Shown: positions 3,602 to 61,989 of the stretch, one piece after another
Position numbering within the stretch: position 1 is the first letter of the stretch
Layout: every line of letters begins with the position of its first letter
Assembly (NCBI GenBank): GCA_963768175.1
Contig: CAVYGQ010000001.1
Coordinates: 840,717 to 904,716 of the forward strand
DNA from: Candidatus Doudnabacteria bacterium
GTDB taxonomy: Bacteria > Patescibacteriota > Doudnabacteria > UBA920
Length of the DNA stretch: 64,000 bases
Reading direction: 5' to 3'
Translations under genes and position numbers: made by a program
Notes under the pieces: generated by a model
What the model saw: only the letters and a program-made list of their open reading frames with translations
Told to the model about the DNA's origin: nothing
Database searches by the model: none

Positions 3602-3672
3602 AAATAAGTAATGTAGCGCGCCGATTTATCGGCAACTTGAGACAGCCCATAAATGGGCATGCTACGCTGAGA

Positions 3673-11377: not shown

Positions 11378-12154
11378 CTATTGGTGTTTCAAAAACGGTT
11401 TTAATATTGGCGCGTATAAATCTTTTTTCGGCGGAATAACCAATTTGTGATATAAATCCTTTTTGGTAAACTTAACAAATTTCGCCCCTCTTAGCACCAC
11501 CACCGGCGTTTGCTCGCCGCCTTCGCCCATTATCAGCGCTCCCAAGTCCGCCAGCGTGTCCACCAAATTGCGCTGGGTGTATTTTAATTTGCGTTTAAAA
11601 ATATCTTTTTGTCCGCGGTAATCAAACAGTGGCTTTAACCCCCAAAAGCCGATGCTTACCCCTTGCGTTCCCCATCTTAGCGGCGTGGTGCGGCTGTCCA
11701 CGGCCACGGCCGCCAGTTTTTTTGTGCCAAATTTTGTTTGGTATCTTTTGACAATTTGTTTAAGTAATAAATTAACATTCTTCGGCCAAAGAATAAAATA
11801 ACCATTGCCGTTGCTTTCATCTATGCCGGCCGAAGGTATAAGCGTGTAGTCTTTAATGGTCAAAATAATTTCCGAATCGCCAATCATGTAAGCCGGCAAG
11901 CTAAAATCGGCTTCTTTTTTTACAAGCTGGTGTTTTTGGTTGTAGCGTGCCGATTTATCCGCCGTCGCTGAAGCTTTGGCGGACAAGTCGGCCTTCTCGA
12001 TTTTCACGCATCTGCCCTGATGAATCGCCAAAATCTTGGAAGCAATCAACAAAACATCGCCTTCTTTAAGCTTAGGCAGGCGTTTGTCCAGCTCTTGCAA
12101 AATGTCGTCCTTTGGCGGCAGGAACTTGCGGGTTTTTATGGGAATGAATTGCAT
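11378..12154 (-). CDS. CofE-like gamma-glutamyl ligase family protein (F420-0:gamma-glutamyl ligase / folate-type)
   Basis: 258 aa. MQFIPIKTRKFLPPKDDIL...GDVLLIASKILAIHQGR N-terminus resembles the CofE family. Contains an in-frame palindromic insert (SAKASATADKSARY). Confidence 0.6.
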   Translation of the reverse strand: MQFIPIKTRKFLPPKDDILQELDKRLPKLKEGDVLLIASKILAIHQGRCVKIEKADLSAKASATADKSARYNQKHQLVKKEADFSLPAYMIGDSEIILTIKDYTLIPSAGIDESNGNGYFILWPKNVNLLLKQIVKRYQTKFGTKKLAAVAVDSRTTPLRWGTQGVSIGFWGLKPLFDYRGQKDIFKRKLKYTQRNLVDTLADLGALIMGEGGEQTPVVVLRGAKFVKFTKKDLYHKLVIPPKKDLYAPILKPFLKHQ

Positions 12155-21904: not shown

Positions 21905-22459
21905 TTAGAGTATCTGATGATTTTTTGACAAACTTAAACCATGCGATAACAACCAGGCCTCAACCTCTTTAGCTATTTTTTCGCTCATCCAATAACCCCT
22001 GGAAAGAGCAGCAATATCGGTTTTGGTAAGATCTTCAATAGTTTGAATGTTTGATCGTTTTGCCGTGGTATAAAAAGAGTTCGTGGCTCTAGTTCTTGAA
22101 AGCTTAATTATTGTCACTGGTTGTTTTAACAATTCTTGCTTAATATGTATCTCATTTTCTGCTATACGTTCTGCTTCCTTGTCTAATAAAGGTTTAAGTT
22201 TCCTAATCTCCGGATTAGTTTTTTCGTTTCGAGAAAGATCGCGAATAGGTTTTTCAATTTCAGCCATGGTTTCAGCTGTAATTGGATCTTCCACTTGGTT
22301 TATTCTTCTCTCTATTTCTTCGGAGCGGCGTTGAGTATTTTCAGGATTCACGAAATACCCTTTCTTATTATCATTCCCGCGAAAGCGGAAATTAGATTCC
22401 CGATCAGCTTTGGAATGACATAATGATAATAAATTATGGAATAAACCTAAAATTCTCAA
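21905..22459 (-). CDS. Hypothetical protein with RpoA C-terminal-domain-like helix-hairpin-helix
   Basis: C-terminus IKLSRTRATNSFYTTAKRSNIQTIEDLTKTDIAALSRG...IAKEVEAWLLSHGLSL resembles the alpha-CTD HhH. The start is uncertain. The annotated start overlaps the hss stop by 26 nt, and an internal ATG at 22267 is possible. Confidence 0.45.
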   Translation of the reverse strand: MRILGLFHNLLSLCHSKADRESNFRFRGNDNKKGYFVNPENTQRRSEEIERRINQVEDPITAETMAEIEKPIRDLSRNEKTNPEIRKLKPLLDKEAERIAENEIHIKQELLKQPVTIIKLSRTRATNSFYTTAKRSNIQTIEDLTKTDIAALSRGYWMSEKIAKEVEAWLLSHGLSLSKNHQIL

Positions 22460-23924
22460 ACTGCCAAACGTCCGCGGCCGGTTTGCTGGCCGGGTTTTCT
22501 TTGAAGTAGATTTTACGATTCTTTAGGGGCGTCCAGTCAGACGGCGTGGAAATAAAGTCGCCGAGATAAGGTTTTGCAATATCCAGCACAAAATCGTGCG
22601 GCAAGTCGTCAGGCAGGCAAATACCTTTTTTCGGATTTTCAAACATCCATAGTACGGCGGCAATTACGCCTAGCGCGACCTGTAAAGTGGTGGCATTTTG
22701 GCCAGGTGCCAGCCTCCGGGCTTCCTGTATGCTTAAATCGCTCCCTGTCCACCAAGAATTATACCGATGCCCCATCAGTAGCGCGCCTAAAATGTCCGCC
22801 CCGGAAGTAATCTCATCTTCCAAAATTCTTATCTTGGACTGCATTTCGTAATTCCTGCCGCGAAGTTCGCATAAAGAAGATAGTGTTTCGTGGCACGGCA
22901 TATACGCGTAATGCACTGTCGGGCGGTAAACTGCCCTATCTCCATCCCAAACTGTTAACCTGTCGGATAACCCAAATGCTTCGCCGTGGCGAATGACCAT
23001 GCCCACAATTTCTTCGTTGGGAATCCATGACCTTACCCAGGTATTAATTCCCATTTGGGAGAGCATAATCTGATTTTTTGGCCCGTAAGGCGGAATATTA
23101 GCCAAGTCCGGTAGCCTTTGTTCGTGTGTGCCCCAACCCATCTCGGCCGGCGCGGTTCCTTCTTCCCGCAAGCCTTCCACGCTCCAGGTTCCTACAAATT
23201 CATCAACTTCTTTTGGGCGATTGGTAATTTGCGTGTCGCGCTCGCTGCAGTGGATTACTTTGATTCCCAATTTTTGTCCGAGCAAATTGAATTTGAGGTT
23301 TTTAATATAATTTTCCAGTTCTTCCCTGTCTTTGCCAGCCACTTTTTTATCTGCGATTGTTTTATTGCCGATATCAATCAATCCTTGTTTGACAAAATGG
23401 GAGATCAAACCGGGGTTTGCGCCATGGTCCACGACTGCCGTAGTGGCGTCTTTCCAGTCTTTGGACATGTCGTGCAGTTTCATTTGGCGCCAGTAAAGCG
23501 ATTTTTCAAATGGGCTGTCAGTAAATAATCCCTTAATGGAATCCCAGATTTCAACCGAAGTATTTACATACAAAACATTATGGTCGTGGCACCAGCCGAT
23601 AATATCATTAGCACCAATATTCCATGCCAAATCTATAATCAGGCCGCCCTTGTCTGTGTATTTGGCCAACTCCGGGCCTAGGTTTTCCGGCGTAATCCTG
23701 TTGCGTACAAATTTGATGCCCTTGTCCGTGAATTTTTTTAAAGCCGCTGCTTTGTCTTCAAAATCCATTACCGTGACGTTTTTTGGGTCAACCTCAATTT
23801 TTTCCAGCAGAATCGGCAGGGTGCACTGCGACACCGCGCCATAACCGATAATCAAAATTTTGCGGTCAAACTTTTTTTTTCCGCCGGAGGCGGATCCGCC
23901 TTTAGCGGACATACGTTTTTCCAT
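22434..23924 (-). CDS. hss: Homospermidine synthase-like (saccharopine dehydrogenase family) enzyme
   Basis: 496 aa. KILIIGYGAVSQCTLPILLEKI resembles the bacterial HSS Rossmann N-terminus. The N-terminus carries the AKGGSASGG palindromic insert. Confidence 0.7.
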   Translation of the reverse strand: MEKRMSAKGGSASGGKKKFDRKILIIGYGAVSQCTLPILLEKIEVDPKNVTVMDFEDKAAALKKFTDKGIKFVRNRITPENLGPELAKYTDKGGLIIDLAWNIGANDIIGWCHDHNVLYVNTSVEIWDSIKGLFTDSPFEKSLYWRQMKLHDMSKDWKDATTAVVDHGANPGLISHFVKQGLIDIGNKTIADKKVAGKDREELENYIKNLKFNLLGQKLGIKVIHCSERDTQITNRPKEVDEFVGTWSVEGLREEGTAPAEMGWGTHEQRLPDLANIPPYGPKNQIMLSQMGINTWVRSWIPNEEIVGMVIRHGEAFGLSDRLTVWDGDRAVYRPTVHYAYMPCHETLSSLCELRGRNYEMQSKIRILEDEITSGADILGALLMGHRYNSWWTGSDLSIQEARRLAPGQNATTLQVALGVIAAVLWMFENPKKGICLPDDLPHDFVLDIAKPYLGDFISTPSDWTPLKNRKIYFKENPASKPAADVWQFENFRFIP

Positions 23925-24085
23925 ATTAAACTTAGATTTAGGGGTAAAAAATAAAAAGACAAACCCTTTTTGAGAATTTGCCTATAATGAACTAAGCCAT
24001 TGGATTGACTTGCAGGTTTCAGATGCGTTAGCCGTGCGAATGTCTTTTCTGTTCACCTCTCTATAAAATATTAAATATTACACCT

Positions 24086-24244: not shown

Positions 24245-24388
24245 CTTCTTCGCTAAAGCTACGAAGTGCGAGCAACTTAGTTGGTATGCTCATTTTAATA
24301 GTTAACTGTAAATTTTAGAAGCGAAGAAGTGCCCTACGTAGCCTTGGCGAAGTAGGGCAGAAAACGGCTATATTCGGTGTCCTTATGT

Positions 24389-31364: not shown

Positions 31365-32435
31365 ATGTATAAATTATTTAGGCCGTTAATCTTTAAAGCT
31401 TCGTCCGATCCCGAAGACATACACAGGGTGGTGATGGGGCTTTTGCATATGGTTGGCAGCATTAGTCCACTTGGCTGGGCGGAGCGGCGGGTTTTTGATT
31501 TTGCCGACAAAAGGCTGGCACAAAACCTTTTTGGTTTGAATTTTAAAAATCCGGTCGGTCTGGCTGGAGGTTTTGATAAGCATGGGGAAGCCATTTTAGG
31601 CTTGGCCAATGTAGGTTTTGGGTTTTTGGAAATCGGCACGGTCACACGTTTTGGTCAGCCGGGCAACCCCAGGCCGCGCATTTTTAGATTACAAAAAGAT
31701 GAAGCCTTAATTAACCGTATGGGTTTTAACAACGAAGGCGCGGATTTTTTGGCAAGCAAATTGTCAAAAACAAAAAAATTAACAATTCCGCTGGGCATTA
31801 ATTTGGGTAAGTCTAAAGTTACCGAACTGGCCAATGCGGCGGAAGATTATTTGTATTCCTTTTCCAAACTTTACGATTATGGCGATTATTTTGTGGTTAA
31901 TATTAGCTCGCCCAATACCTCGGGGCTGCGGCAGTTGCACGAAAAAAGTTTTTTGGTTGATATTTTGTCGGGTTTGAACGGTTACAGATTAAGGCAGCCG
32001 GTAATAAAACCGGTCTTGGTAAAAACCGTTGTGGACTTGTCTTTGGAGGCAATTGACGAGGCATTGGAAGTTTGCAAAAACCAAAATGTTGACGGTATAA
32101 TTATTAGCAACACTTCAATTGGTAGGGATGGCTTCAAAATTAAAACCGATGAAACAGGAGGTTTAAGCGGCAAGCCGATAAGACAGAAATCTACTGATTA
32201 TATAAAATATATTCATCGGCAGGCTCCAGGCCTTCCAATTGTAGGTGTTGGTGGAATTTTTAGTGCGGAAGATGCTTACGAAAAAATTAAAGCGGGAGCA
32301 TCGCTTGCCCAAATTTATACCGGATTGATTTACGAAGGCCCGGGAGTGGTAAAAAAAATAAACCAGGGTTTGGTAAAATTGCTTGAGCGCGACGGGTTTA
32401 AAAATATTGGTGAAGCGGTTGGGAAAGGAAACTAA
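31365..32435 (+). CDS. pyrD: Dihydroorotate dehydrogenase (quinone), class 2
   Basis: 356 aa. GLNFKNPVGLAGGFDK, GFGFLEIGTVT..GQPGNPRPRIFRL and IVGVGGI motifs. Confidence 0.9.
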   Translation: MYKLFRPLIFKASSDPEDIHRVVMGLLHMVGSISPLGWAERRVFDFADKRLAQNLFGLNFKNPVGLAGGFDKHGEAILGLANVGFGFLEIGTVTRFGQPGNPRPRIFRLQKDEALINRMGFNNEGADFLASKLSKTKKLTIPLGINLGKSKVTELANAAEDYLYSFSKLYDYGDYFVVNISSPNTSGLRQLHEKSFLVDILSGLNGYRLRQPVIKPVLVKTVVDLSLEAIDEALEVCKNQNVDGIIISNTSIGRDGFKIKTDETGGLSGKPIRQKSTDYIKYIHRQAPGLPIVGVGGIFSAEDAYEKIKAGASLAQIYTGLIYEGPGVVKKINQGLVKLLERDGFKNIGEAVGKGN

Positions 32436-32440
32436 AGGAC

Positions 32441-32550
32441 GACGTCATTCCGAGCGCCTGCAATATCGCGCGAGGAATCTCTTATTGGCAGTTCGTTATT
32501 TAAGAGATCCTTCACCCTTCGGATGCACTCGGGGTTCAGGATGACGCCGC
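32441..32550. repeat. Palindromic MITE/RPE-like element, intergenic copy 1
   Basis: GACGTCATTCCGAG...GAGGAATCTC...AGAGATCCTTCACCCTTCGGATGCACTCGGGGTTCAGGATGACGCC. Terminal inverted repeats GTCAT..ATGAC. Same family as 43990-44075, 54178-54277 and 57344-57451. Confidence 0.8.
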
Positions 32551-32569: not shown

Positions 32570-32598
32570 TTGAAAAATGTCAGTACTTGGGGTATAAT
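32570..32598 (+). promoter_or_regulatory. Near-consensus sigma70 promoter for tRNA-Leu(GAG)
   Basis: TTGAAA, 17 nt, TATAAT, ending 20 nt upstream of the tRNA 5' end. Confidence 0.6.
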
Positions 32599-35205: not shown

Positions 35206-35691
35206 TTATTTTTCCTCGTGTATTTTACGTATAACTTCGTCTATATGCTGCACATATCTCGGGCTAGTGTCTAGATGGAAGCTTATTCGGGGAATGACTT
35301 TGGTGGCAAAGTGCTTGTTAACTTCGCCCTGGAGGTCGTAAATGTTTTTTCCCAAAAATGTTAAGATTTTATAGTCCAAAGATAGAGCAGTCTGAGATTT
35401 TTTATCAGCCTGCGACAAACTTTTTTTCCCTCTCCCTTCTTGCCCGCCGTAGCCTTGGCGAAGGCGGGTGGGAGAGGGTGCCCCAAGCCCGTCTTGGGGC
35501 GGGTGAGGGTCTGGGTTAAAAATAGAAATCCAAATTTTGGCGTACTTCATATCTTTGCTGGTTTCCACTTTGGTTATGGTCACCAGGCCTTTTTGCCAAT
35601 CCAAAAATTTATGCAAAACCGGCCCCAATTCGTGCTGGATTAAGGAGTTTACCTTAGCTATGCGGTTGGTGTCTTTTTTTACCGGCTTCAT
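35206..35691 (-). CDS. rbfA: Ribosome-binding factor A with a roughly 45-aa in-frame palindromic insert
   Basis: RIAKVNSLIQHELGPVL...ITKVETSKDMKYAKIWIS ... FHLD...HIDEVI are RbfA motifs. The inserted PDPHPPQDGLGAPSPTRLRQGYGGQEGRGKK is encoded by hairpins at 35428-35499. Confidence 0.8.
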   Translation of the reverse strand: MKPVKKDTNRIAKVNSLIQHELGPVLHKFLDWQKGLVTITKVETSKDMKYAKIWISIFNPDPHPPQDGLGAPSPTRLRQGYGGQEGRGKKSLSQADKKSQTALSLDYKILTFLGKNIYDLQGEVNKHFATKVIPRISFHLDTSPRYVQHIDEVIRKIHEEK

Positions 35692-43455: not shown

Positions 43456-43586
43456 ATCTAAGCTATTGTAGCACTAGTTATGGCTTGCGTTCAAATGATA
43501 AATTGTATCATTATCCTTTATCTTTTATCCTTGACAACCTTCGCTTGGTAAAGGATAATGGATAAAAGATTAAAGATAAATTTATT

Positions 43587-43793
43587 ATGTCCAAAAAGCA
43601 CAAAAGAAGCGATTACCAAATACCCCAGCAAGCCGGTATTTCCCATGCCGCGGAATACCGCATTATTAAGTTTGATTTGGTAAAAGTGGTAATTTTAAAC
43701 CTTGTTTATTTAGCGGTTATTTTGTCGTTGTATTTTGGCAACCAGCATACGCATTTTTTGGATAACTGGTTTGCGAAACTTCTCCATTTCTAG
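43587..43793 (+). CDS. Small membrane protein (68 aa), hypothetical
   Basis: ORF with one hydrophobic helix. Followed by the hairpin AACAACGGGCATCATTGG..CCAATGGTGCCCGTTGTT. Confidence 0.4.
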   Translation: MSKKHKRSDYQIPQQAGISHAAEYRIIKFDLVKVVILNLVYLAVILSLYFGNQHTHFLDNWFAKLLHF

Positions 43794-43989
43794 TTTATCT
43801 TTGAACAACGGGCATCATTGGTCTTAGAAATATTTCAATCCAATGGTGCCCGTTGTTACCTTTTGTTATAGACGCCCCATAATGGGCGGGTTTTGTCATA
43901 TATGATATAAAGTGGATAATTTTGGTTGACCAAAGGGCAAAAATTTGCTAAAATTGTAATACATATATCACATACGATAGTTTCCCTTT

Positions 43990-44075
43990 GGCGTCATCCT
44001 GAGCGTAGCGAAGGATCTCATTAAAGAAAGAGATTCTTCACCCTTCGGATGCTACTTCAGGTTCAGAATGACGCC
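43990..44075. repeat. Palindromic MITE/RPE-like element, intergenic copy 2
   Basis: GGCGTCATCCTGAGCGTAGCGAAGGATCTC...AGAGATTCTTCACCCTTCGGATGCTACTTCAGGTTCAGAATGACGCC. Confidence 0.8.
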
Positions 44076-44094
44076 TTAGGAAAGAAAATATTAT

Positions 44095-45648
44095 ATGCAA
44101 AACCTTATAAAGGATCAGCAGAAAATCGGCCAGTTTATAGCCGAAGTCCGTGAGCTTAAAGGCTTTACCCAAAGCCAGTTTGCCAAAAGCTTAAAAACCA
44201 GCCAGTCAGCCGTAGCCAGGATGGAAAGCGGCCAGCAAAACTTAACTACAGAGATGCTGGCTAAGATTAGCGCAGTTTTGAACCATGAAATTATTACGTT
44301 GGCCGACAAGTCGGTAAATTTTAAAATAGAAGGCGGGCGGAAACTTTCGGGAAGGGTCGCGGTTAATACTTCCAAGAATGCCGCGGTGGCGCTGTTGTGC
44401 GCTTCTTTGCTTAATGAAGGTAAAACTATTTTTAAGAATGTGCCTAAAATAGAGGAAGTCTACCGGGTAATTGAAGTTTTGGTCAGTCTTGGCGTCTCGG
44501 TAAAATGGCAGGGCGCGGATGTGGAAATTTTGCCGGGCAAAAAAATTACCATAAATAAAATAGACAAAGAAGCCGCGGTTAAAACCAGAAGCGTTCTTAT
44601 GCTGCTTGGGCCTTTGGCTCATATTCTTCCCGCTTTTAACCTGCCTTTGGCCGGCGGCTGCAAACTGGGCGAACGGACCGTGAGGCCGCATTTGTTTGCT
44701 TTGGAAAAGCTTGGAGTTAAAATTCAGACCCATCATGACCATTACGCCGTAAGCTCGGCTAAAGCTCCCGCCAAAGGCGGATCCGCCTCCGGCGGAAAAA
44801 CCGCGGAGGTAGTGCTTTACGAAATGGGTGACACAGTGACGGAAAACACGCTTATGGCCGCGGCAAAAATAAACGGCGTGACCACCATCAAGCTGGCCTC
44901 TTCCAATTACATGGTGCAGGATTTATGTCATTTTTTGCAAAGTTTGGGCGTAAAAATTGAAGGCGTGGGTACCTCCACCTTAAAAGTGCATGGCAAACCG
45001 CACATTAACCAGCGTGTGGTCTTTTATTTAAGCGAAGACCCCATAGAAGCCATGCTGTTTTTGTCTTTGGCTGTCACCACAAATTCTTCCATAACCGTTG
45101 AGCGCTGCCCCATAGACTTTTTGGAGCTGGAACTGTTGAAATTGGAAAAGATGGGGTTTAAGTACCGGATTATTAAGCGTTATAAAAGCCATAACGGTAT
45201 TACCAATTTGGCAGATATTAAGACTTTCCCGTCTAAATTAATCGCGCTGGAAGAAAAAATCCACCCGTTGACGTCCTCGGCCGGAATTAATATAGATAAC
45301 CTGCCGTTTTTTGTGCCCATTGCCACCCAGGCCAAAGGCACCACGCTGATTCACGACTGGGTTTACGAAAATCGCGCTATTTACTATTTGGAATTAAATA
45401 AGCTGCGGGCCAATATAATTTTGGCCGACGCCCACCGCGTTTACATAGACGGCCCGACCGAACTTAAAGCAGGCGAAGTCATTTGTCCCCCTGCCCTGCG
45501 CCCGGCCGCGATAATTCTAATTGCGATGTTAGCCGCCAAAGGCACCTCTATTCTCCGCAACGTTTATTCCATAAACCGCGGCTATGAGAATTTGGTGCAG
45601 CGATTACAGAAGCTCGGAGCCAAGATCGAAATGATACATGGCATGTAA
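44095..45648 (+). CDS. murA: UDP-N-acetylglucosamine 1-carboxyvinyltransferase with N-terminal XRE-type HTH domain
   Basis: 517 aa. Residues 1-70, IGQFIAEVRELKGFTQSQFAKSLKTSQSAVARMESGQQNLTTEMLAKISAVL, form a Cro/C1 HTH. The rest is MurA (KLSGRVAVNTSKNAAVALLCASLL, LAGGCKLGERTVRPH with the active-site Cys retained). In-frame AKGGSASGG insert. Confidence 0.85.
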   Translation: MQNLIKDQQKIGQFIAEVRELKGFTQSQFAKSLKTSQSAVARMESGQQNLTTEMLAKISAVLNHEIITLADKSVNFKIEGGRKLSGRVAVNTSKNAAVALLCASLLNEGKTIFKNVPKIEEVYRVIEVLVSLGVSVKWQGADVEILPGKKITINKIDKEAAVKTRSVLMLLGPLAHILPAFNLPLAGGCKLGERTVRPHLFALEKLGVKIQTHHDHYAVSSAKAPAKGGSASGGKTAEVVLYEMGDTVTENTLMAAAKINGVTTIKLASSNYMVQDLCHFLQSLGVKIEGVGTSTLKVHGKPHINQRVVFYLSEDPIEAMLFLSLAVTTNSSITVERCPIDFLELELLKLEKMGFKYRIIKRYKSHNGITNLADIKTFPSKLIALEEKIHPLTSSAGINIDNLPFFVPIATQAKGTTLIHDWVYENRAIYYLELNKLRANIILADAHRVYIDGPTELKAGEVICPPALRPAAIILIAMLAAKGTSILRNVYSINRGYENLVQRLQKLGAKIEMIHGM

Positions 45649-45683: not shown

Positions 45684-45713
45684 TTTGTGCTAAAATAAAG
45701 ATATAAAAGCGCC

Positions 45714-48209
45714 ATGGCGGAAACAAACAACAATTTGGGTTTATCATCAGCCGAAGCCGCTAGCAGATTAAGGCAGTACGGCTATAACGAAATTGCGGAA
45801 AGCAAAAGGCTATCCGGGCTTTTGGCTTTTTTGTTAAGGTTCCGCAATCCGCTGGTGCTGATTTTGGTCTTTGCGGCTACGATATCAGCTGTAACCGGGG
45901 ATCCCGTCAGTGCGCTGATTATCATCAGTATTGTACTGCTGTCCGTTATCTTAGATTTTTTTAATACCTACAAATCCCAAAAAGCCGCGGAAGAGCTGAT
46001 AGAAAAAGTGGAAATTACAGCCGAGGTATTGAGAGGCGGCATAGTGACTCCCCTGCCGCTGCGCTTGATTGTGCCCGGAGACGTGGTGGAACTTGAGGCC
46101 GGAGACGTAATTCCCGCAGACGGCAAAATTTTAAGCGCCAAAGATTTATTTTTGAACGAATCTTCGCTAACCGGCGAATCTTTTCCCGCGGAAAAGCAGG
46201 AAGGCTTGCCTATTTTTTTGGGAACCAACGTGGTTACCGGCACTGGCCGGATGCTGGTGGAAGTTACGGGTAAAAAAACCAAGTTCAGCAAAATCGCGGA
46301 AAGTCTGGAAGCGCCGGAAAGGCCTACGGATTTTGACCGCAGCATAAAAGATTTTAGCTACTTAATTATGAAGATAACTTTTGTCTTGGTTATCTTTATT
46401 TTTTTGGTTAACGCCATACTCAAAGGCAGCACTTATATTTTGGAGTTGTTTTTGTTTGCCGCGGCCTTGGCCGTGGGCTTGACGCCGGAGCTTTTGCCCA
46501 TGATTATTACGCTTAATTTATCCAAGGGCTCTTTGGCCATGTCCAAGCACGGCGTAATTGTAAAAAAACTATCGGCCATCCAAAACTTTGGCGCTATGGA
46601 TGTATTGTGCACCGATAAAACCGGCACGTTGACGGAAGACAGGATTGAACTGGTCAAGTACGTGGACGCCGAGGGCAAGCCGGATGAAAACATTTTTAAG
46701 TACGCTTACCTTTCCAGCAGTTTCCGCAGCGGCTTTAAGAATCCGCTGGATGTGGCTGTAAAAAATTTCAAGATGTTTGATATTGGCGGCAAATCCGCCT
46801 TCGCTGAAGCTTCGGCGGATGACTCGCTATCAAATATATTAATGGGAGTCAAAAAAATAGACGAAATCCCCTTTGATTACCGGCGCAAGCGCGATTCCAT
46901 TATCGTGAAAACTTCTCAAGGCTATGAGCTTATTTCCAAAGGCGCGCCTGAAGAAATGTTTGAGACCTGCAGTTTTTATAGCCAGATGGGTAAAAAACTC
47001 ACCCCTACTATAGCCAAAAAATTGGAAAAAGAATATCAGGCTTTAAGTGCCGACGGCTTTAGGGTTTTGGCTGTGGCCTGCAAGACGCTTCCGGAAAAAA
47101 CGGCATACGAAAAAGAAGACGAAAGGGATTTGGTTATATTGGGCTTTATTGCTTTTTTGGATCCGCCCAAAAAGAGCGTGACCGAAACCCTGCGGACTTT
47201 GGAAAATTATGGCATCGCCATAAAAGTTATTACCGGCGATAACGAAATTATTACCAAAAAAATCGCTCAGGAAATTAATTTGCCCGTTTTGGGCAGTTTG
47301 ACCGGGGCAGAGATAGAAAAATTGACCGATCGGCAGCTAGCAATAGATGCGGAGAAAACTACAGTTTTTGCGCGCGTTACGCCGGAACAAAAAAAGCGCA
47401 TTATTTTGGCTTTGCAAAAAAATAAACACGTAGTCGGGTTTATGGGCGATGGTATAAATGACGCGCCGTCGCTTAAGACCGCGGACGTGGGCATTTCGGT
47501 TAACAACGCGGTGGACGTGGCCAAGGAATCGGCCGATTTAATTTTATTGCACAAGAGTTTAAAGGAGCTGGCTTTAGGCGTTATCCAGGGCCGCAAAACT
47601 TTTGCCAATACTTTAAAGTATTTAATGATGGGTTTGAGCTCAAATTTCGGCAATATGTTTTCCATGGCCGGAGCATCCATGTTTTTTCCGTTTTTGCCCA
47701 TGCTGCCGGCCCAGATTTTGCTAAATAATCTGCTGTATGACGGCTCGCAGTTTGTCATTCCGCTGGACAATGTGGATGAGCAGGACATTGCCAGGCCACG
47801 GCAAATGAAGATCCATTTTTTGCGCAGATTTATGGTGGTTTTTGGCATTTTAAGTTCGGTGTTTGATTTTGTGACGTTTTTAGTGTTAACTTTTGTCTTC
47901 CATTATACCAACCACTACTTCCAGACCGGCTGGTTTATTACCTCTTTTGCCACGCAAATTTTAGTGGTATTTGTTATCCGCACCAAGCAGGTGCCGTTTT
48001 TCAAAAGCAAGCCGGCTAAGTCCTTAGTTATTTCCGTGTTTAGTTTTTTGGCTTTAGCCCTGCTTTTGGCCTTAGGCCCGATAAAAAATATCTTCGGCTT
48101 TGCCCCGCTTTCGCTGGCCATGGTTTTAAGCGCTTTCCTTATTACCCTGCTCTATTTAATCTGTATTGAGTTCGCCAAAAGCAAATTTTACCAATATGTT
48201 TCGGAATAA
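45714..48209 (+). CDS. mgtA: Magnesium-translocating P-type ATPase
   Basis: 831 aa. CTDKTGTLT, MGDGINDAPSLKTADVGISV, and an MgtA-like N-terminus (GLSSAEAASRLRQYGYNE). Confidence 0.85.
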   Translation: MAETNNNLGLSSAEAASRLRQYGYNEIAESKRLSGLLAFLLRFRNPLVLILVFAATISAVTGDPVSALIIISIVLLSVILDFFNTYKSQKAAEELIEKVEITAEVLRGGIVTPLPLRLIVPGDVVELEAGDVIPADGKILSAKDLFLNESSLTGESFPAEKQEGLPIFLGTNVVTGTGRMLVEVTGKKTKFSKIAESLEAPERPTDFDRSIKDFSYLIMKITFVLVIFIFLVNAILKGSTYILELFLFAAALAVGLTPELLPMIITLNLSKGSLAMSKHGVIVKKLSAIQNFGAMDVLCTDKTGTLTEDRIELVKYVDAEGKPDENIFKYAYLSSSFRSGFKNPLDVAVKNFKMFDIGGKSAFAEASADDSLSNILMGVKKIDEIPFDYRRKRDSIIVKTSQGYELISKGAPEEMFETCSFYSQMGKKLTPTIAKKLEKEYQALSADGFRVLAVACKTLPEKTAYEKEDERDLVILGFIAFLDPPKKSVTETLRTLENYGIAIKVITGDNEIITKKIAQEINLPVLGSLTGAEIEKLTDRQLAIDAEKTTVFARVTPEQKKRIILALQKNKHVVGFMGDGINDAPSLKTADVGISVNNAVDVAKESADLILLHKSLKELALGVIQGRKTFANTLKYLMMGLSSNFGNMFSMAGASMFFPFLPMLPAQILLNNLLYDGSQFVIPLDNVDEQDIARPRQMKIHFLRRFMVVFGILSSVFDFVTFLVLTFVFHYTNHYFQTGWFITSFATQILVVFVIRTKQVPFFKSKPAKSLVISVFSFLALALLLALGPIKNIFGFAPLSLAMVLSAFLITLLYLICIEFAKSKFYQYVSE

Positions 48210-48944: not shown

Positions 48945-49415
48945 ATGTTAAAAATTGAAATAATCGCTTTAGGAAAATTCAAGGAAAAGGCTTACAGGGA
49001 TCTGGAAGCCGAGTTTTTAAAGCGCTTGTCCCCCTTTGCCAAAATTAAAGTTATTGAACTGCCGGAAATCGGTTACGGCAAGAACCAGGATTTGGGAAAA
49101 ATTAAACAGCAGGAAGCGGAAAAAATAGTTAAACAATTGCCGGACGGCGGGGTAATAATTTTGCTGGAAGAAAAGGGAACATTGCGCAATTCCAAGGATT
49201 TTGCCGGTTTTTTAGAGCGGGTTGGCGGCTTGGGCAAAAAATTGGTTTTTGTCATCGGCAGCGGTATTGGTCTGCACGAATCAATCCGCCAATACAGCAA
49301 CTACACCATTTCCCTGTCCCCTCTTACTTTCCCGCACAATATGGCCAGGATCATTCTTGAGGAGCAGATATACAGAGCGTGTACCATTTTGTCCGGGAAA
49401 GACTATCATAAGTAG
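48945..49415 (+). CDS. rlmH: 23S rRNA (pseudouridine1915-N3)-methyltransferase RlmH
   Basis: ATG 48945: MLKIEIIALGKFKEKAYRDLEAEFLKRL...FVIGSGIGLHESI...SLSPLTFPHNMARIILEEQIYRA. The track ORF start 48861 runs through repeat sequence. Confidence 0.85.
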   Translation: MLKIEIIALGKFKEKAYRDLEAEFLKRLSPFAKIKVIELPEIGYGKNQDLGKIKQQEAEKIVKQLPDGGVIILLEEKGTLRNSKDFAGFLERVGGLGKKLVFVIGSGIGLHESIRQYSNYTISLSPLTFPHNMARIILEEQIYRACTILSGKDYHK

Positions 49416-49509
49416 ATTTAAGATTAAAGATTTAGGTTTTAAGACTTCCCTCACCCGAGGGATTTTTTGAATCCGCGGCGATCAATGCCAAAAATATCCA
49501 AAGTAAAAG

Positions 49510-51357: not shown

Positions 51358-51511
51358 CCCCGTTAGAAGTCCAGCATATATCTTTTTAGCGGGTACTTTT
51401 AAGGTGTCCGACTTCTAACGGGGTTGATAAAATAAGCTAAATCTAATAAAATATCTAAGCAACATTTTGTTGATCGTTTAAGGTTTGCCCTACGTAGCCT
51501 TGGCGAAGTAA

Positions 51512-51585
51512 GGGCCTGTAGTATAATGGTAATACGGATCCATGGCATGGATTAGTCGGGGGTCCGATTCCCCCCAGGTCCACCA
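51512..51585 (+). tRNA. tRNA-Ala (GGC), CCA encoded
   Basis: GGGCCTG/CAGGTCC acceptor with G3:U70, anticodon arm GATCC ATGGCAT GGATT. T arm is GGGGG TCCGATT CCCCC (C at position 55). Confidence 0.85.
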
Positions 51586-51801: not shown

Positions 51802-51949
51802 GAGATAAAGCCCCAGTAAAATCTGGGGTTTTATCTTAGGTAAAGCAATGGTATGATATAGGTATGAACCCCGTTAGAAATTTATTCTTTCGGGAAACTT
51901 AGAGTAAATTGTTGAACATATCAAATATCTATTGTTTTATTGTTATTCC

Positions 51950-52783
51950 ATGGCTATTTCTAACGGGGTGAATAAGCAGGTTGTTATAAACAATCTTTTG
52001 ATTAGTTACAGCGAGGTACAAAGCGGCGGCGCTCAAACGCTGTTGTTTTTGCATGGCTGGCGGAGCCAAAAGGAAGTTTGGCTGCCGGTAATCCAAAAGT
52101 TGTCGGTCATAAACAGTCAGTTATCAATTTACGCAATAGATTTGCCTGGATTTGGCGGGTCGCAAGCTCCAACCACCCCGCCCCGTCAGACGGGCCACCC
52201 CTCCTTAAATAAGGAGGGGAATACTGCAGGATGGACGGTGGGGGATTATGTGAATATTGTTGCGGAATTTATTGGGAAATTAGAATTAAAAAATGTCATC
52301 GTTGTTGGCCATTCTTTTGGCGGCAGGGTGGCTATAAAATTAGCTTCGGTAAATCCGAAATTGGTAAATAAAGTGGTGTTGGTGGATAGCGCTGGATTTG
52401 CTATGGAAGCATCAAAGAAAAAATTGGCGGCCTTAGCCGCAAAAATTGTTAAACCGGTTTTTAAGCCCAAAGTCATGCAGGGACTACGCAAAAAAATTTA
52501 TCAGACAATCGGCGCGGAAGATTACGTAGCCATCCCGGAACTGCAAAAAACTTTTGTGAACGTTACGAACGAGGATTTGTCGGATGACATGAAAAAAATA
52601 CAGGCACCTACTCTTATAATTTTCGGGGAAAACGATAAAGAAACGCCGGCAACTTACGGCGAGTTAATGAAGTTTTTAATCCCAAAATCCAAATGCTTAA
52701 TTTTGAAAGGCACTGGGCACTTTAGTTTTTTGGAAAGGCCGGAGGAATTTGTAAAAATATTAAGTGATTTTATTCTATCTTAA
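51950..52783 (+). CDS. Alpha/beta hydrolase fold protein
   Basis: ATG 51950. LLFLHGW and the nucleophile elbow VVGHSFGG. In-frame hairpin insert encoding PPRQTGHPSLNKEGNT (CCCCTCCTT aaat AAGGAGGGG near 52198-52219). Confidence 0.75.
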   Translation: MAISNGVNKQVVINNLLISYSEVQSGGAQTLLFLHGWRSQKEVWLPVIQKLSVINSQLSIYAIDLPGFGGSQAPTTPPRQTGHPSLNKEGNTAGWTVGDYVNIVAEFIGKLELKNVIVVGHSFGGRVAIKLASVNPKLVNKVVLVDSAGFAMEASKKKLAALAAKIVKPVFKPKVMQGLRKKIYQTIGAEDYVAIPELQKTFVNVTNEDLSDDMKKIQAPTLIIFGENDKETPATYGELMKFLIPKSKCLILKGTGHFSFLERPEEFVKILSDFILS

Positions 52784-52819: not shown

Positions 52820-54403
52820 ATGGACTTGTTTGTTCCAAAATTTATCCAATACCAATTATACCTGCTCCAGCTGGAAAATTATGAGCTGGGAAGGTATTGG
52901 AAATTGCTTATAAAAAAGGGAGTTTTCCCTAAAAAAAGCCAACCTTTGCGCAAAGAGCTGGTCTGGACCGCTAAAGCTCGGGCGTTAATGCTTATGGCTG
53001 TGGCCCTGCATGGTTTGGTGGTCGTTTTGGTTGGGCTTATGGTTTTAACTTTAAAGCCGGGCATAGATAACTTTTTTACCACAATAATTTTGGCGGTATT
53101 AATTTTGTTGCCGTTTTATTTTGTTTTTTTCAGTCTGGCTTTGTTAATCCTTAAGCCTTTGGACACTCTGGTAAAACAAAGCCTTGTGGCTAAAGCCAAA
53201 ACCAAGCTGGCTGGATTGCCTGATGTCAAGATAATCGGCGTTGCCGGCAGTTACGGCAAAACTACAATGAAGGAAGTGTTGAGGGCAGTGCTAAGTGCTA
53301 AGTTCAAAGTGCTAAGTACGCCGGAGAGCATAAACACGCCGGTGGGGATTGCCAGATGGATTATAAATAAAATAACGGACGAAACCCAAATTCTGATTGT
53401 AGAAATGGGGGAGCATTATGAGAAAGACGTTAAAGAAATTTGCGATATAGCAAAACCCGACATCGCGGTGGTTACCGGCATTAACGAATCCCACTTGGAG
53501 CGGATGAAAAAAATGGATACGGTTATTGCCACAATTTTTGAAATCGTGAGTAACGCCCAGCCCGGCGCGGCTATTGTGCTAAACGGCGATGATCGCAGGG
53601 TTATGGAGAATTATAAAAAATTTGTCTGGCCAGACCATCGGCTGGAATTTTTTACAAAAAATCCCGGCAGTGAAAAGTGTAAAGTGAAAAGTGCAAAGTT
53701 TAACACAGACAAGCTGTGTTGGAATTTAGAGATTGATGATCTTGGCTCGGTAGAACTGGATTTACTTGGGGAATACGCGTTGGGCGACGTTGACGCGGCC
53801 GTGAAAATTGCCAAAAGTTTGGGTATGAGCAATGAGCAAATTATCGCGGGGATCAAAAATATCAAGCCCGTGGAGCACAGGCTCCAGCCGATAAAGTCTG
53901 CCACGAATGTTTTGGTAATAGACGACAGTTACAACGGCAATTCCGACGGAGTAGTGGAAGCCATAAAAGTTTTGTCGCGCTTTTCCGCCAAAGGCGGATC
54001 CGCCTCCGGCGGAGAAGGCCGCCGGAAGATTTATATCACTCCCGGGCTGGTGGAAATAGGCAAAAGTTCCGCCGATATTCATCGCAGTATTGGCAAACAG
54101 CTGGCGGACGTTGCGGATGTGGTTATTTTGATAAAAAATAGCGCGACGGGGTTTATTGAAGAGGGAATCCTCTTAGGGCGTCATTCTGACCCTGAGCGGA
54201 GCGAAGGGGAAGAATCTCAAACTAAGGATAAAGAGATCCTTCGTCCCTCGGATGCACTCGGGGCTCAGGATGACGCCGCTGGTAAGAGACCAAGAATTAT
54301 CTGGTTTAATTCCGCCTTGGAAGCGTACGCGGGGCTAAAAGACATTTTAAAACCCGGGGATGTAATTTTGTTTCAGAACGATTGGGGAGACCAGTATTTG
54401 TAA
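52820..54403 (+). CDS. murF: Mur ligase, MurF-like (UDP-MurNAc-tripeptide--D-Ala-D-Ala ligase) with N-terminal membrane segment and in-frame repeat inserts
   Basis: 527 aa. GVAGSYGKTTMKE P-loop and VIDDSYNGN. The first 115 aa or so contain 3 hydrophobic helices. Inserts at 53985-54012 (AKGGSASGG) and 54178-54277 (RPE-like). Confidence 0.8.
   Translation: MDLFVPKFIQYQLYLLQLENYELGRYWKLLIKKGVFPKKSQPLRKELVWTAKARALMLMAVALHGLVVVLVGLMVLTLKPGIDNFFTTIILAVLILLPFYFVFFSLALLILKPLDTLVKQSLVAKAKTKLAGLPDVKIIGVAGSYGKTTMKEVLRAVLSAKFKVLSTPESINTPVGIARWIINKITDETQILIVEMGEHYEKDVKEICDIAKPDIAVVTGINESHLERMKKMDTVIATIFEIVSNAQPGAAIVLNGDDRRVMENYKKFVWPDHRLEFFTKNPGSEKCKVKSAKFNTDKLCWNLEIDDLGSVELDLLGEYALGDVDAAVKIAKSLGMSNEQIIAGIKNIKPVEHRLQPIKSATNVLVIDDSYNGNSDGVVEAIKVLSRFSAKGGSASGGEGRRKIYITPGLVEIGKSSADIHRSIGKQLADVADVVILIKNSATGFIEEGILLGRHSDPERSEGEESQTKDKEILRPSDALGAQDDAAGKRPRIIWFNSALEAYAGLKDILKPGDVILFQNDWGDQYL
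54178..54277. repeat. Palindromic MITE/RPE-like element, in-frame inside murF (copy 3)
   Basis: GGCGTCATTCTGACCCTGAGCGGAGCGAAGGGGAAGAATCTCAAAC...AGAGATCCTTCGTCCCTCGGATGCACTCGGGGCTCAGGATGACGCC. Translated as GRHSDPERSEGEESQTKDKEILRPSDALGAQDDAA. Confidence 0.8.
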
Positions 54404-54442: not shown

Positions 54443-55588
54443 ATGGGGACAATCGGAAAAATTTTTAATAAGATAGTATCACCAAAAATTAACTATCAAC
54501 CGCTTATAGAAGTGAGGATTTTTAAAGATGCCTTGCTGCATAATTTACACGTTTTCCAAGAAAAATATCCGAGCCTTGAGTTTGCCCCAGTGATAAAAAG
54601 CAACGCTTACGGACACGGTATGGTACAGGTGGCAAAAATTTTTGACAGCAAACCCAAAGCTTTTTTTATGGTGGACTCATTTTATGAGGCTTTGGTGTTA
54701 AGGCGCGCCGGAATTAAATCTAAAATTTTAATGCTGGGTTTTAACCGGATTGAGCAATTGATTAACCCCAAATTAAAAAATTGTTCCTCGGCGATTATTG
54801 ATTTCTCCACTTTGCAGGAAGTGGTGGCAAAATTAAAAAAGCCGGCGATCTTTCATCTCAAGATTGATACGGGTATGCACCGGCAGGGACTGTGGGGGGA
54901 AGAAGTAAATAAGGCAATTGCGTTAATCAAGTCTAACCCAAACTTTAATTTGGAGGGCTTATGCAGCCATTTGGCGGATGCCGACGGGGCTGGGCAGGAT
55001 TTTACCAAACAGCAGATTAGACTGTGGAATCAAGTCGTGGAAAAATTCAAACAAAACTTTCCCTCCATTAAATATTTCCATTTAGCCAATACCGCCGGGA
55101 CTTTTTATACCAACGAAATTACGGCCAACGTGGCGCGCATCGGCATCGGGCTGTATGGGTTAAATAATTCACAGTTTGAAAAGTTGGACTTAAAACCGGC
55201 TTTGGAAATGGCCTCTATTGTCACTTCCGTAAAAACTATTCCGGCTGGGGAGAAAATCGGTTACAATATAACTTATGAGGCGCCGAAAGAAACAAAAATC
55301 GCCACCGTACCGGCGGGATTCAACGAAGGCGTGGACCGCAGGCTTTCAAATAAAGGATTTTACCAAATTAAGGGGCAAAACTGTCCTTTGCGGGGCAAGG
55401 TGAGCATGAACATAAGCAGCGTGGAAGTAACCAGTGTCCCTGGAGTTAAAGTGGGGGATGAGGTGGTAATTATAAGCCGAAATCCGAGCGATAAAAATTC
55501 GGTGGAAAATATTGCCAAAATGTGCGACACGGTACATTACGAAATTCTGGTTCATATACCTTCTATATTAAGAAGAATAATAGTGTAG
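54443..55588 (+). CDS. alr: Alanine racemase
   Basis: 381 aa. PVIKSNAYGHG carries the PLP lysine, with the typical C-terminal beta domain. Confidence 0.9.
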   Translation: MGTIGKIFNKIVSPKINYQPLIEVRIFKDALLHNLHVFQEKYPSLEFAPVIKSNAYGHGMVQVAKIFDSKPKAFFMVDSFYEALVLRRAGIKSKILMLGFNRIEQLINPKLKNCSSAIIDFSTLQEVVAKLKKPAIFHLKIDTGMHRQGLWGEEVNKAIALIKSNPNFNLEGLCSHLADADGAGQDFTKQQIRLWNQVVEKFKQNFPSIKYFHLANTAGTFYTNEITANVARIGIGLYGLNNSQFEKLDLKPALEMASIVTSVKTIPAGEKIGYNITYEAPKETKIATVPAGFNEGVDRRLSNKGFYQIKGQNCPLRGKVSMNISSVEVTSVPGVKVGDEVVIISRNPSDKNSVENIAKMCDTVHYEILVHIPSILRRIIV

Positions 55589-55653
55589 CGCGCCGATTTA
55601 TCGGCATCCTAAGATAGCCCATAAATGGGCACGCTACAGATGGAAAAAATTTT

Positions 55654-57010: not shown

Positions 57011-57739
57011 ATGACTTTTAGATACGAAAACCAAAAGTACAAACAAGGCTATAGCCATGTTATCGGCTGTGATGAAGTGGGTAAGGGCAGTTTGGCCGGG
57101 CCGGTGGTCGCGGTGGCAATAATATTGGATTTAAGATGTAAGATTAAAGATTTAAGCGAAGTCAGGGATAGTAAAATGTTGTCTCAAGAACAGAGGGAAA
57201 AACTTCAACCATTGATAAAGCAACATTGCCTGGCTTGGGGGATAGGCGTAGTCGATGAAAAAACTATAGACAAAATAAATATTCACCGCGCAACCTTGGC
57301 CGCGATGAAACTGGCTGTGGGAAATTTGTTGGCCTCTTTCTCCGGCGTCATTCTGAGGCCAAAGTGCTACTCCGAGGCTGAAGAATCTCAAACCGGGAAG
57401 AGATCCTTCGCCCGCACTGATAACTCCAGGGAACGGGCCCAGGATGACGCCGCTAAAGGAGTTTTGGTAGCCATAGACGGCAAGTTTATTATCCCCGATT
57501 TGAATTTGGAACAGGAAGCCGTAGTAGGAGGCGACAATAAAATTCTTTCCGTTGCTGCTGCCTCCATTGTTGCCAAAGTTTACCGCGATGATTTGATGCG
57601 CAAGCTTCATCGTCAATATCCGGTTTACAATTTTGCCCGGCACAAAGGCTACGGCACTTTGTTTCATCGAACAATGATTAAACAAAATGGTCTGTCGCCA
57701 ATACATCGCAGAAGTTTTTGCAAAAACCTATCAATTTAA
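57011..57739 (+). CDS. rnhB: Ribonuclease HII with in-frame repeat insert
   Basis: VIGCDEVGKGSLAGPVV, LAAMKLAV, IDGK, GGDNKILSVAAASIVAKVYRD and HKGYG motifs. A 36-codon insert lies at 57344-57451. Confidence 0.85.
   Translation: MTFRYENQKYKQGYSHVIGCDEVGKGSLAGPVVAVAIILDLRCKIKDLSEVRDSKMLSQEQREKLQPLIKQHCLAWGIGVVDEKTIDKINIHRATLAAMKLAVGNLLASFSGVILRPKCYSEAEESQTGKRSFARTDNSRERAQDDAAKGVLVAIDGKFIIPDLNLEQEAVVGGDNKILSVAAASIVAKVYRDDLMRKLHRQYPVYNFARHKGYGTLFHRTMIKQNGLSPIHRRSFCKNLSI
57344..57451. repeat. Palindromic MITE/RPE-like element, in-frame inside rnhB (copy 4)
   Basis: GGCGTCATTCTGAGGCC...GCTGAAGAATCTCAAACC..AGAGATCCTTCGCCC...CCCAGGATGACGCC. Translated as GVILRPKCYSEAEESQTGKRSFARTDNSRERAQDDAA. Confidence 0.8.
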
Positions 57740-61935: not shown

Positions 61936-61989
61936 AGAGTAGTGAATCCGCCTTCGCTAAAGCTACGGCGGACAAGTAGGATAAAACAC

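Follow-up and report, generated by a model that had tools for sequence, protein, structure and literature searches.

Rickettsia palindromic elements (RPE), reportedly described by Ogata et al. in 2000, are palindromes that lie in frame in housekeeping genes and encode extra surface segments of the proteins. Our work concerns a 64-kb stretch of DNA (the window) from a Candidatus Doudnabacteria genome of about 949 kb, which carries four palindromic elements of 86 to 110 nt, two of them intergenic and two in frame in murF and rnhB (Table 1). A sequence-only reading of the window had likened them to RPE and taken the genic copies for in-frame insertions. We consider it likely that the four elements are head-to-head dimers of CGTC-tagged repetitive extragenic palindrome (REP) units and form a variant family of a known superfamily. 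The RPE-like reading gains support from this assignment because the CGTC-tagged superfamily, with the same tag and head-to-head layout, already includes RPE-4 and RPE-6. On this assignment, a known class of palindromic repeats, selfish or semi-domesticated, extends to the candidate phyla radiation (CPR).

A CGTC-tagged REP has an unpaired CGTC tag, a stem of 8 to 9 bp that starts with A,T, a loop of 4 to 5 nt, and a CCA tail (Di Nocera, De Gregorio & Rocco 2013, BMC Genomics 14:522; PMC3733652). The tag has the variants TGTC and CCTC, and the units mostly form head-to-head dimers with the tags outside, often as heterodimers (PMC3733652). They are dispersed, mainly near the 3' ends of open reading frames (ORFs), with some in-frame intragenic copies and without an associated transposase gene, and were known from Proteobacteria and a few more phyla (PMC3733652). 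R. conorii RPE-6 corresponds to CGTC-1 and RPE-4 to CGTC-4, and in Xanthomonas recB different REPs occupy about the same site (Di Nocera et al. 2013; PMC3733652).

The window elements have in common with these REPs the tag, the A,T start of the stem, a short unpaired tail, and head-to-head dimers, including heterodimers of stem variants. They likewise lie near ORF ends (the copy at 32441 begins 6 nt past the stop codon of ORF 31365-32435) or in frame in genes, without a linked transposase, and the Sphingomonas copies that were retrieved with the window termini are canonical members. However, the published stem is perfect over 8 to 9 bp and is followed by CCA, whereas the CPR stem has five Watson-Crick pairs plus tandem G.A and is followed by CTC; in place of the short loop, the CPR units often have a nested hairpin of 10 to 25 nt. 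Moreover, the phyla listed in 2013 exclude CPR/Patescibacteria and Acidobacteriota (PMC3733652), and the intragenic fraction appears high in CPR.

The other described systems are more distant. RPE are also palindromic and in frame in housekeeping genes, but their host phylum differs, and RPE-1, the classic in-frame element of 100 to 150 nt, is a different sequence family. The link of RPE-4 and RPE-6 to the window elements runs through the family assignment of Di Nocera et al. and through back-translated peptides, not through aligned DNA. The published R. conorii dimer peptides SFLRKQES...DSRFRGND would back-translate to ends of the CGTCATTCC...GGAATGACG type, and such ends appear to resemble the ATTCC subtype found at 32441 and in RNase HII relatives (...SRLRGNDK). 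The REPIN-RAYT system (Bertels & Rainey 2011), in which RAYT stands for REP-associated tyrosine transposase, is likewise an inverted doublet of tagged hairpins that can fold as one long hairpin, with dispersed, diverged copies, none of them identical, and no target duplication. It differs in its GTAG tag and in its single-copy RAYT gene flanked by the same REPs; the window tag is CGTC, and no such RAYT was found. [quoted passage not shown] In contrast to them, the window family shows no target-site duplication and no parent insertion sequence (IS), and its arms are self-pairing tagged units.

In-frame palindromes in housekeeping genes are already known from Rickettsia, and intragenic CGTC repeats have been known since 2013. 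In the literature searched, the presence of the repeats in CPR and Acidobacteriota, a G.A-containing unit with nested apical hairpins, and both the density of in-frame copies in CPR proteins and the occupation of one site by several repeat families seem unreported. Searches by terminus sequence returned unrelated primers only, and those on in-frame palindromes in CPR found nothing specific.

Architecture of the four elements

The four copies lie where the sequence-only reading had placed them, apart from a shift of 1 nt at the start of the murF copy (54177 instead of 54178). The terminus GRCGTCATYCYGAS, with up to two mismatches, matches the window 10 times against 1.8 expected, a count reached in 0 of 100 shuffles, and 8 of the 10 matches make up four correctly spaced inverted pairs. 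In an alignment of the four copies the termini and two inner blocks are invariant, with variable stretches between them. The core blocks proposed before, GAAG(A/G)ATCTC and GAGAT(C/T)CTTC, occur in 4/4 copies, and the proposed shared termini are indeed paired in all four, the left end of the 32441 copy being degenerate (GACGTCATTCCGAG) and belonging to a sister subtype. The palindrome runs one base past the ends given here (Y...R). As RNA, the whole elements form long hairpins of -38 to -53 kcal/mol, more stable than nearly every shuffle (z of -2.4 to -6.4).

Each element consists of two inverted hairpin units with their CGTC tags pointing outward, a head-to-head dimer. Read 5' to 3', a unit comprises the unpaired tag CGTC, AT-YCT, GA, an apical hairpin of variable length, GA, AGR-AT, and the CTC tail. 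As the units face each other with the tags outside, a single long hairpin spanning the element is an alternative fold. The tag stands at the start of 8/8 window units, and across units CGTC (or TGTC) precedes a stem starting with A,T; GGCGTC is unpaired in 7/8 predicted unit folds. The tags are outside in all window copies and in every copy fetched with the dimer pattern. The stem spans nine positions, two of them non-canonical: five Watson-Crick pairs, then G.A and A.G, then at least two G-C pairs. The minimal unit at 43992-44017 has a loop of 3 nt (5 nt if the closing pair opens), and the other seven window units carry apical insertions of 10 to 25 nt.

Covariation points to pairing within the units. 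Among 224 units from the window and the fetched loci, the variable triplet after CGTCAT (CCT, TCT, TGC, or TCC) has its exact complement before ATC in 75%, against 30% expected, and these four differently compensated variants would argue for real pairing within units. Where all four blocks of a dimer are readable, the states of the left-outer and left-inner blocks agree in 59/60 dimers, and those of the right-inner and right-outer blocks likewise in 59/60; the outer arms are T.G or C.A in 40/60, that is, T-type/C-type heterodimers. Because the blocks of the same half agree in 59/60 dimers, the conserved pairing lies within each unit, as it does for REPs.

This architecture bears on the view that the elements are ordinary MITEs, deletion derivatives of an IS with a DDE transposase that moved by cut-and-paste with target-site duplication. 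Terminal inverted repeats, a length of about 100 nt, and multiple dispersed copies within and between genes fit a MITE, but self-complementary tagged arms with internal covariation are typical of REPs and not of IS ends. Moreover, none of 49 CPR copies is flanked by a direct repeat of at least 3 nt, neither the window nor about 100 fetched loci showed an IS with the element's GGCGTCATYCTGA termini, and the 2013 survey found no transposase association. We regard an origin as MITEs as very improbable. In the same 49 copies (loci L002-L109 and the window), the left flank is T/C-rich (G about 6%) and the right flank A/G-rich (C about 6%) in any orientation; the element could prefer such targets, or the palindrome could weakly continue into its flanks.

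The two copies described as intergenic both lie outside long ORFs. The copy at 32441 is upstream of the promoter-like site of a tRNA gene (32570-32598). The copy at 43990 ends 19 nt ahead of the ATG of ORF 44095-45648 and is preceded by a promoter-like site at 43926-43954; because it lies between this site and the ATG, it is probably in a 5' untranslated region. Both intergenic copies thus probably occupy transcribed positions. At gathering thresholds Rfam returned tRNAs only and no match for the elements, and a permissive Rfam scan of the murF copy gave merely far-sub-threshold matches to hairpins of microRNA precursors.

Table 1. The four elements, here termed likely CGTC-tagged REP dimers, with their units and host genes (window coordinates; encoded peptides are predicted)
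Feature	Coordinates	Strand	Description
CGTC-tagged REP head-to-head dimer, intergenic	32441..32550	+	RNA fold -38.4 kcal/mol, z -2.35
Left unit of this copy	32443-32479		ATTCC/GGAAT subtype
Right unit of this copy	32506-32546	-	ATCCT/AGGAT subtype
CGTC-tagged REP head-to-head dimer, intergenic	43990..44075	+	RNA fold -37.9 kcal/mol, z -5.74
Left unit of this copy	43992-44017		Minimal form CGTC-ATCCTGAGCG-TAG-CGAAGGAT-C
Right unit of this copy	44032-44073	-	ATTCT/AGAAT subtype
murF (UDP-MurNAc-pentapeptide synthetase)	52820..54403	+	Pfam Mur_ligase_M and Mur_ligase_C, PDB MurF matches, homologs
CGTC-tagged REP head-to-head dimer, in frame in murF	54177..54277	+	Encodes about GRHSDPERSEGEESQTKDKEILRPSDALGAQDDAA; RNA fold -52.9 kcal/mol, z -6.39
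Left unit of murF copy	54179-54216	+	
Right unit of murF copy	54235-54275	-	
rnhB (RNase HII)	57011..57739	+	Pfam RNase_HII, PDB matches split in two around the insert, homologs
CGTC-tagged REP head-to-head dimer, in frame in rnhB	57344..57451	+	Encodes GVILRPKCYSEAEESQTGKRSFARTDNSRERAQDDAA; RNA fold -45.7 kcal/mol, z -4.62
Left unit of rnhB copy	57346-57387	+	
Right unit of rnhB copy	57402-57449	-	Apical part degenerate

Copies within murF and rnhB

Both host ORFs are intact and, as had been noted, run through their element copies without a stop codon; rnhB was assumed to be an essential gene. The two genic copies had also been said to share orientation and reading frame. The orientation is indeed the same, and so is the frame at EESQT/QDDAA, but the frames differ at the left terminus (GRHSD versus GVILR) and in the second core block (KEILR versus KRSF), and internal indels restore the frame. 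At the genic termini the left end is read as GVIL or RHSE and the right end as QDDA or RMTP; since TGA occurs in one of the three frames, two frames are usable per terminus.

The loop-like positions ascribed to the inserts were borne out by alignment and structure prediction. The AlphaFold models of MurF and RNase HII are confident overall (pLDDT 86.6 and 89.8) except at the inserts. In MurF the insert falls in a loop (residues 457-491) between a helix (443-456) and a strand (492-496), with a pLDDT of about 50. The RNase HII of T. maritima aligns to residues 8-111 and 150-237 and leaves about 38 residues without a counterpart. In the model this insert (residues about 110-149) lies between helix 91-109 and strand 151-156 and has a pLDDT below 50 at residues 120-138 and 140-142; this strand carries the invariant Asp156. 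We infer that the genic copies are translated into disordered, hydrophilic loops of roughly 33 to 38 residues; the predicted peptides of a translated murF insert include EESQTK/EILRPSDALGAQDDAAGK.

Syntenic loci of three related genomes (L002, L003, and L004, with the order hydrolase-murF-alr-ddl-rnhB-fumarase) show that neither segment is universal. L002 and L003 share the element at the murF site with the window, and L004 has none there. At the rnhB site, L002 holds a sister family with a TGTC start and the ends TGTCATTGCGAG...CTCGCAATGACA, L004 a third family, also starting with TGTC (TGTCATTCCGAG...GGGATGACA), and L003 only a short GTAG-tagged palindrome, the window element being absent. 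More widely, about 45/79 MurF relatives have no insert at the site, and 31/93 RNase HII relatives lack a long insert, several of the latter having a short single-unit GTAG-tagged palindrome; the remaining RNase HII relatives hold inserts from at least four recognizable repeat families. Because relatives without inserts exist, the segments are insertions and not ancestral linkers.

Three further explanations of the segments may be taken together, namely that they are ancestral linkers of MurF and RNase HII, that they are removed before the mature protein forms (in the manner of an intron, intein, or bypass), or that they arose in assembly. The closest relatives (65-75% identical proteins) do hold the same family at the same site, which by itself could pass for an inherited linker, but the segments are absent in L004 (murF), in L003 (rnhB), and in many other relatives, and they show nucleotide identity to the intergenic copies of the same genome. 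Removal is opposed by compensating indels that keep the frame and by the lack of intron or intein features and of an Rfam match. An artefact is opposed by the recovery of the same protein from an independent assembly and from several metagenome-assembled genomes (MAGs). A check for frameshifts saw none: an identical RNase HII is encoded by a separately assembled Logan contig, and the murF ORF is open in three genomes. The ancestral and artefact variants are already contradicted, and we give hardly any credence to this group of explanations as a whole.

The three genomes that share the murF element (L002, L003, and the window) show how it is conserved. The four core blocks are identical at 54/54 columns, and the coding flanks of the element are invariant at 71/150 and 89/126 columns. 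From the left block the ORFs give GRHSD, GVILR, or RRHSE, in two different frames. Because the block columns are invariant while the reading frame differs, conservation acts at the level of the nucleotides and not of the peptide. The orthologous copies differ by mutually compensating indels of 2, 4, and 7 nt, and the ORF stays open in all three genomes; this would be expected of a translated segment, and frame keeping would be needless if it were excised.

Could the elements, then, be functional nucleic acid modules kept by selection, with the peptide as a by-product? Such a module might be a hairpin that stabilizes or cleaves the mRNA or pauses the ribosome, or a DNA site for a conserved host protein. 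The invariance of the murF blocks against 47-71% in their flanks, in spite of the differing frame, would fit this explanation, as would the strong RNA folds of the whole elements, the probably transcribed positions of the intergenic copies, and the occurrence of the 13-nt terminus and inner block in common in CPR, Acidobacteriota, Alphaproteobacteria, and Bacteroidota. However, the conserved blocks could equally result from gene conversion between copies or from the sequence needs of a mobilizing enzyme. Many orthologs are fine without the insert or with a different family at the site, the copy number and position of the element vary between relatives and are not kept, and no Rfam family matches. 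On balance, we find a selected function improbable.

The host gene murF holds a second, unrelated palindrome of 30 nt at 53981-54016 (residues 391-398), in a low-confidence loop of the model; T. maritima MurF lacks the 11 residues GGSASGGEGRR that correspond to it. In addition, Pfam recognizes no N-terminal Mur ligase domain in this clade's MurF (window 52820-53220, residues 1-131), and its model has long helices at residues 51-131 that look like membrane helices.

Distribution, spread, and turnover

A search of one genome per species for both termini at the right spacing recovered at least 105 loci, in Saccharibacteria, Doudnabacteria, other Patescibacteria, many Terriglobia and other Acidobacteriota, Hymenobacter, and Bradyrhizobium, and in at least seven cultured Sphingomonas species. 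The Sphingomonas copies read CGTC-ATCCTGAA-CTCGT-TTCAGGAT-CCA at each end, with a perfect 8-bp stem and a 5-nt loop. The 3-nt tail is CTC in CPR, CTG or CTC in Terriglobia, and CCA solely in the Sphingomonas copies.

About 14 of about 50 sampled CPR copies lie inside genes, and ten further host proteins of other CPR genomes contain in-frame copies. Some separate Pfam domains, namely the two domains of CarA, the catalytic and editing domains of LeuRS, and the two domains of a glycosyltransferase; others are found in MnmA (one shared site in two genomes), Lgt, YchF, Wzy_C, and a UvrD-type helicase. CGTC repeats seem commonly to supply extra loops to CPR housekeeping proteins such as MurF, RNase HII, MnmA, LeuRS, CarA, Lgt, YchF, and the UvrD-type helicase. 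This affects how CPR proteins are annotated and their structures predicted, because their odd low-complexity inserts are repeat derived and not lineage-specific domains. In the Wzy_C genes of L002 (6766-6862) and L003 (4347-4434), the dimer is at the same site, but its T-type and C-type units have traded places with respect to the coding strand, which suggests inversion in place or independent insertion; L004 has no dimer there.

Searches in other databases returned little. A profile of five insert peptides had only 9 matches among 1.84 billion representatives, as a profile of 40 positions carries too little information at that database size, and a 68-aa two-frame consensus peptide gave no scorable candidates in a word-indexed protein database. 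In IMG/VR nothing matches the full dimer pattern exactly. Single CGTC units (CGTCATYCTGAG..GAAGRATCT) are present there in 61 viral contigs, where a rough estimate would give about 3 by chance.

The copies are dispersed through the genome and probably persist where they do little harm. The tolerated sites would be transcribed intergenic DNA at gene ends and, inside genes, surface loops and interdomain linkers. Within genes only in-frame, stop-free copies would survive, with harmful insertions removed by purifying selection. By analogy with GTAG REPs and RAYT, we favor a REPIN-like mechanism of spread, in which an enzyme acting in trans would recognize the tagged hairpin on single-stranded DNA; no mobilizing enzyme for CGTC repeats was identified in the window or in the literature.

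Several points weigh against this account and against the assignment to the CGTC superfamily. The CPR unit departs from the CGTC definition in its five Watson-Crick pairs, tandem G.A/A.G, variable apex, and CTC in place of CCA; its loop length also differs from the published 4 to 5 nt, which sets a new family apart but leaves the architecture unchanged. Isolated units as DNA fold at -2 to -8 kcal/mol with z about 0, no more stably than shuffles, so that the unit hairpin rests on the covariation, part of which could stem from descent from a few master copies. That the inserts are translated is predicted from the sequence. A tblastn search with nine RAYT/TIRYT proteins (2013 supplement) found none in the window, which, as 64 kb of a genome of about 949 kb, provides weak evidence of absence. 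A RAYT was rejected as the mobilizer, since there is none in the window and the sole RAYT-like gene in the fetched CPR loci goes with GTAG and not CGTC repeats. Finally, none of the six genomes sampled contains identical copies (the maximum is about 0.9 identity); in the absence of identical or near-identical pairs, recent transposition was also set aside, and movement is not demonstrated.

The RAYT-like gene just mentioned is a tyrosine transposase ORF in a Saccharibacteria MAG (L051, 599-1123) that matches the RAYTs of P. fluorescens and O. terrae with E of about 1e-7. A GTAG-tagged hairpin lies ahead of this ORF, and a GTAG REP dimer is in frame within it (PVGAVTNRPRNRADDIRPYN).

The RNase HII loop may be a site of repeat turnover. 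Across relatives, this single loop holds two families with TGTC, CGTC dimers, a GTAG monomer, and one or more additional families. In a rough neighbor-joining tree of insert-masked RNase HII, close relatives carry a mixture of repeat families: P0001 (the window family) stands beside P0004 (ATTGC family), and P0003 beside P0017 and P0015 (ATTCC family). The deeper-branching sequences have no insert. This pattern could result from repeated independent insertion into the only tolerant loop or from replacement of one repeat by another, and the tree is too weak to decide. A bolder idea is that REP-type palindromes of CPR replace one another at fixed intragenic "landing pads" rather than landing randomly and being filtered; we put it forward tentatively and think it rather unlikely. 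It draws on the mixed families of the RNase HII loop and on a 30-nt palindrome found at one and the same MurF codon in four scattered lineages. If it were true, landing pads together with the near identity of CGTC units across at least four phyla would point to a widely conserved tagged-hairpin enzyme that copies or converts site specifically, and the tiny genomes of CPR would be the best place to find it. The dispersed-dimer reading, too, bears on how CGTC repeats, without a known transposase, spread and stay uniform across phyla.

Other repeats in the window

The second murF palindrome belongs to a family of 30- to 33-nt double palindromes, CCGCCAAAGGCGGATCCGCCTCCGGCGG, with three copies (23876-23912, 44768-44800, and 53981-54016). 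All lie inside long ORFs (22434-23981 on the minus strand, 44080-45648, and murF) and are always read as (S/P)AKGGSASGG. Four scattered lineages, and no others, have the SAKGGSASGG insert, at the identical position in MurF (relatives P0128, P0170, and P0180).

An AT-rich repeat, GATTTAAGATGTAAGATTAAAGATTTAAG, is present at 57128-57156 within rnhB and at 43561-43589 and 49415-49443. At a second variable site of RNase HII it reads LRCKIKDLS, and relatives hold other inserts there, including SAKGGSA; a similar motif, LKIKD, fills the murF hot spot in L004. In the neighboring ORF 51932-52783 (alpha/beta hydrolase), a GC-rich palindrome, CCCGTCAGACGGG plus CCCCTCCTTAAATAAGGAGGGG (52170-52225), is in frame and encodes TTPPRQTGHPSLNKEGN; in other relatives the murF hot spot is occupied by related peptides, TPP...GG(V)P. 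A free-standing ORF of the LAGLIDADG family lies just downstream of rnhB in L003 (15054-16058) and L004 (15284-16288).

GTAG-tagged REP-like head-to-head dimers, TGTAGCGCGCCGATTTATCGGC...GCCCATAAATGGGCAYGCTACA, are found at 3609-3665 and 55581-55637 (89% identical), with a partial copy at 11941-11962; one of these dimers is in the alr-ddl spacer. Their presence suggests a GTAG REP family as a further resident of the genome, perhaps with a RAYT elsewhere in it. Two short palindromic families complete the set. One, ATCCGCC..GCTGAAGC..GGCGGA, has copies at 11957-11991, 46793-46827, and 61946-61980, of which the 46793 copy is in frame in a 2.5-kb ORF (45699-48209). The other, CCCTACGTAGCCTTGGCGAAGTAGGG, occurs at 24330-24357, 35441-35468, and 51486-51513, and two of its copies adjoin tRNA genes.

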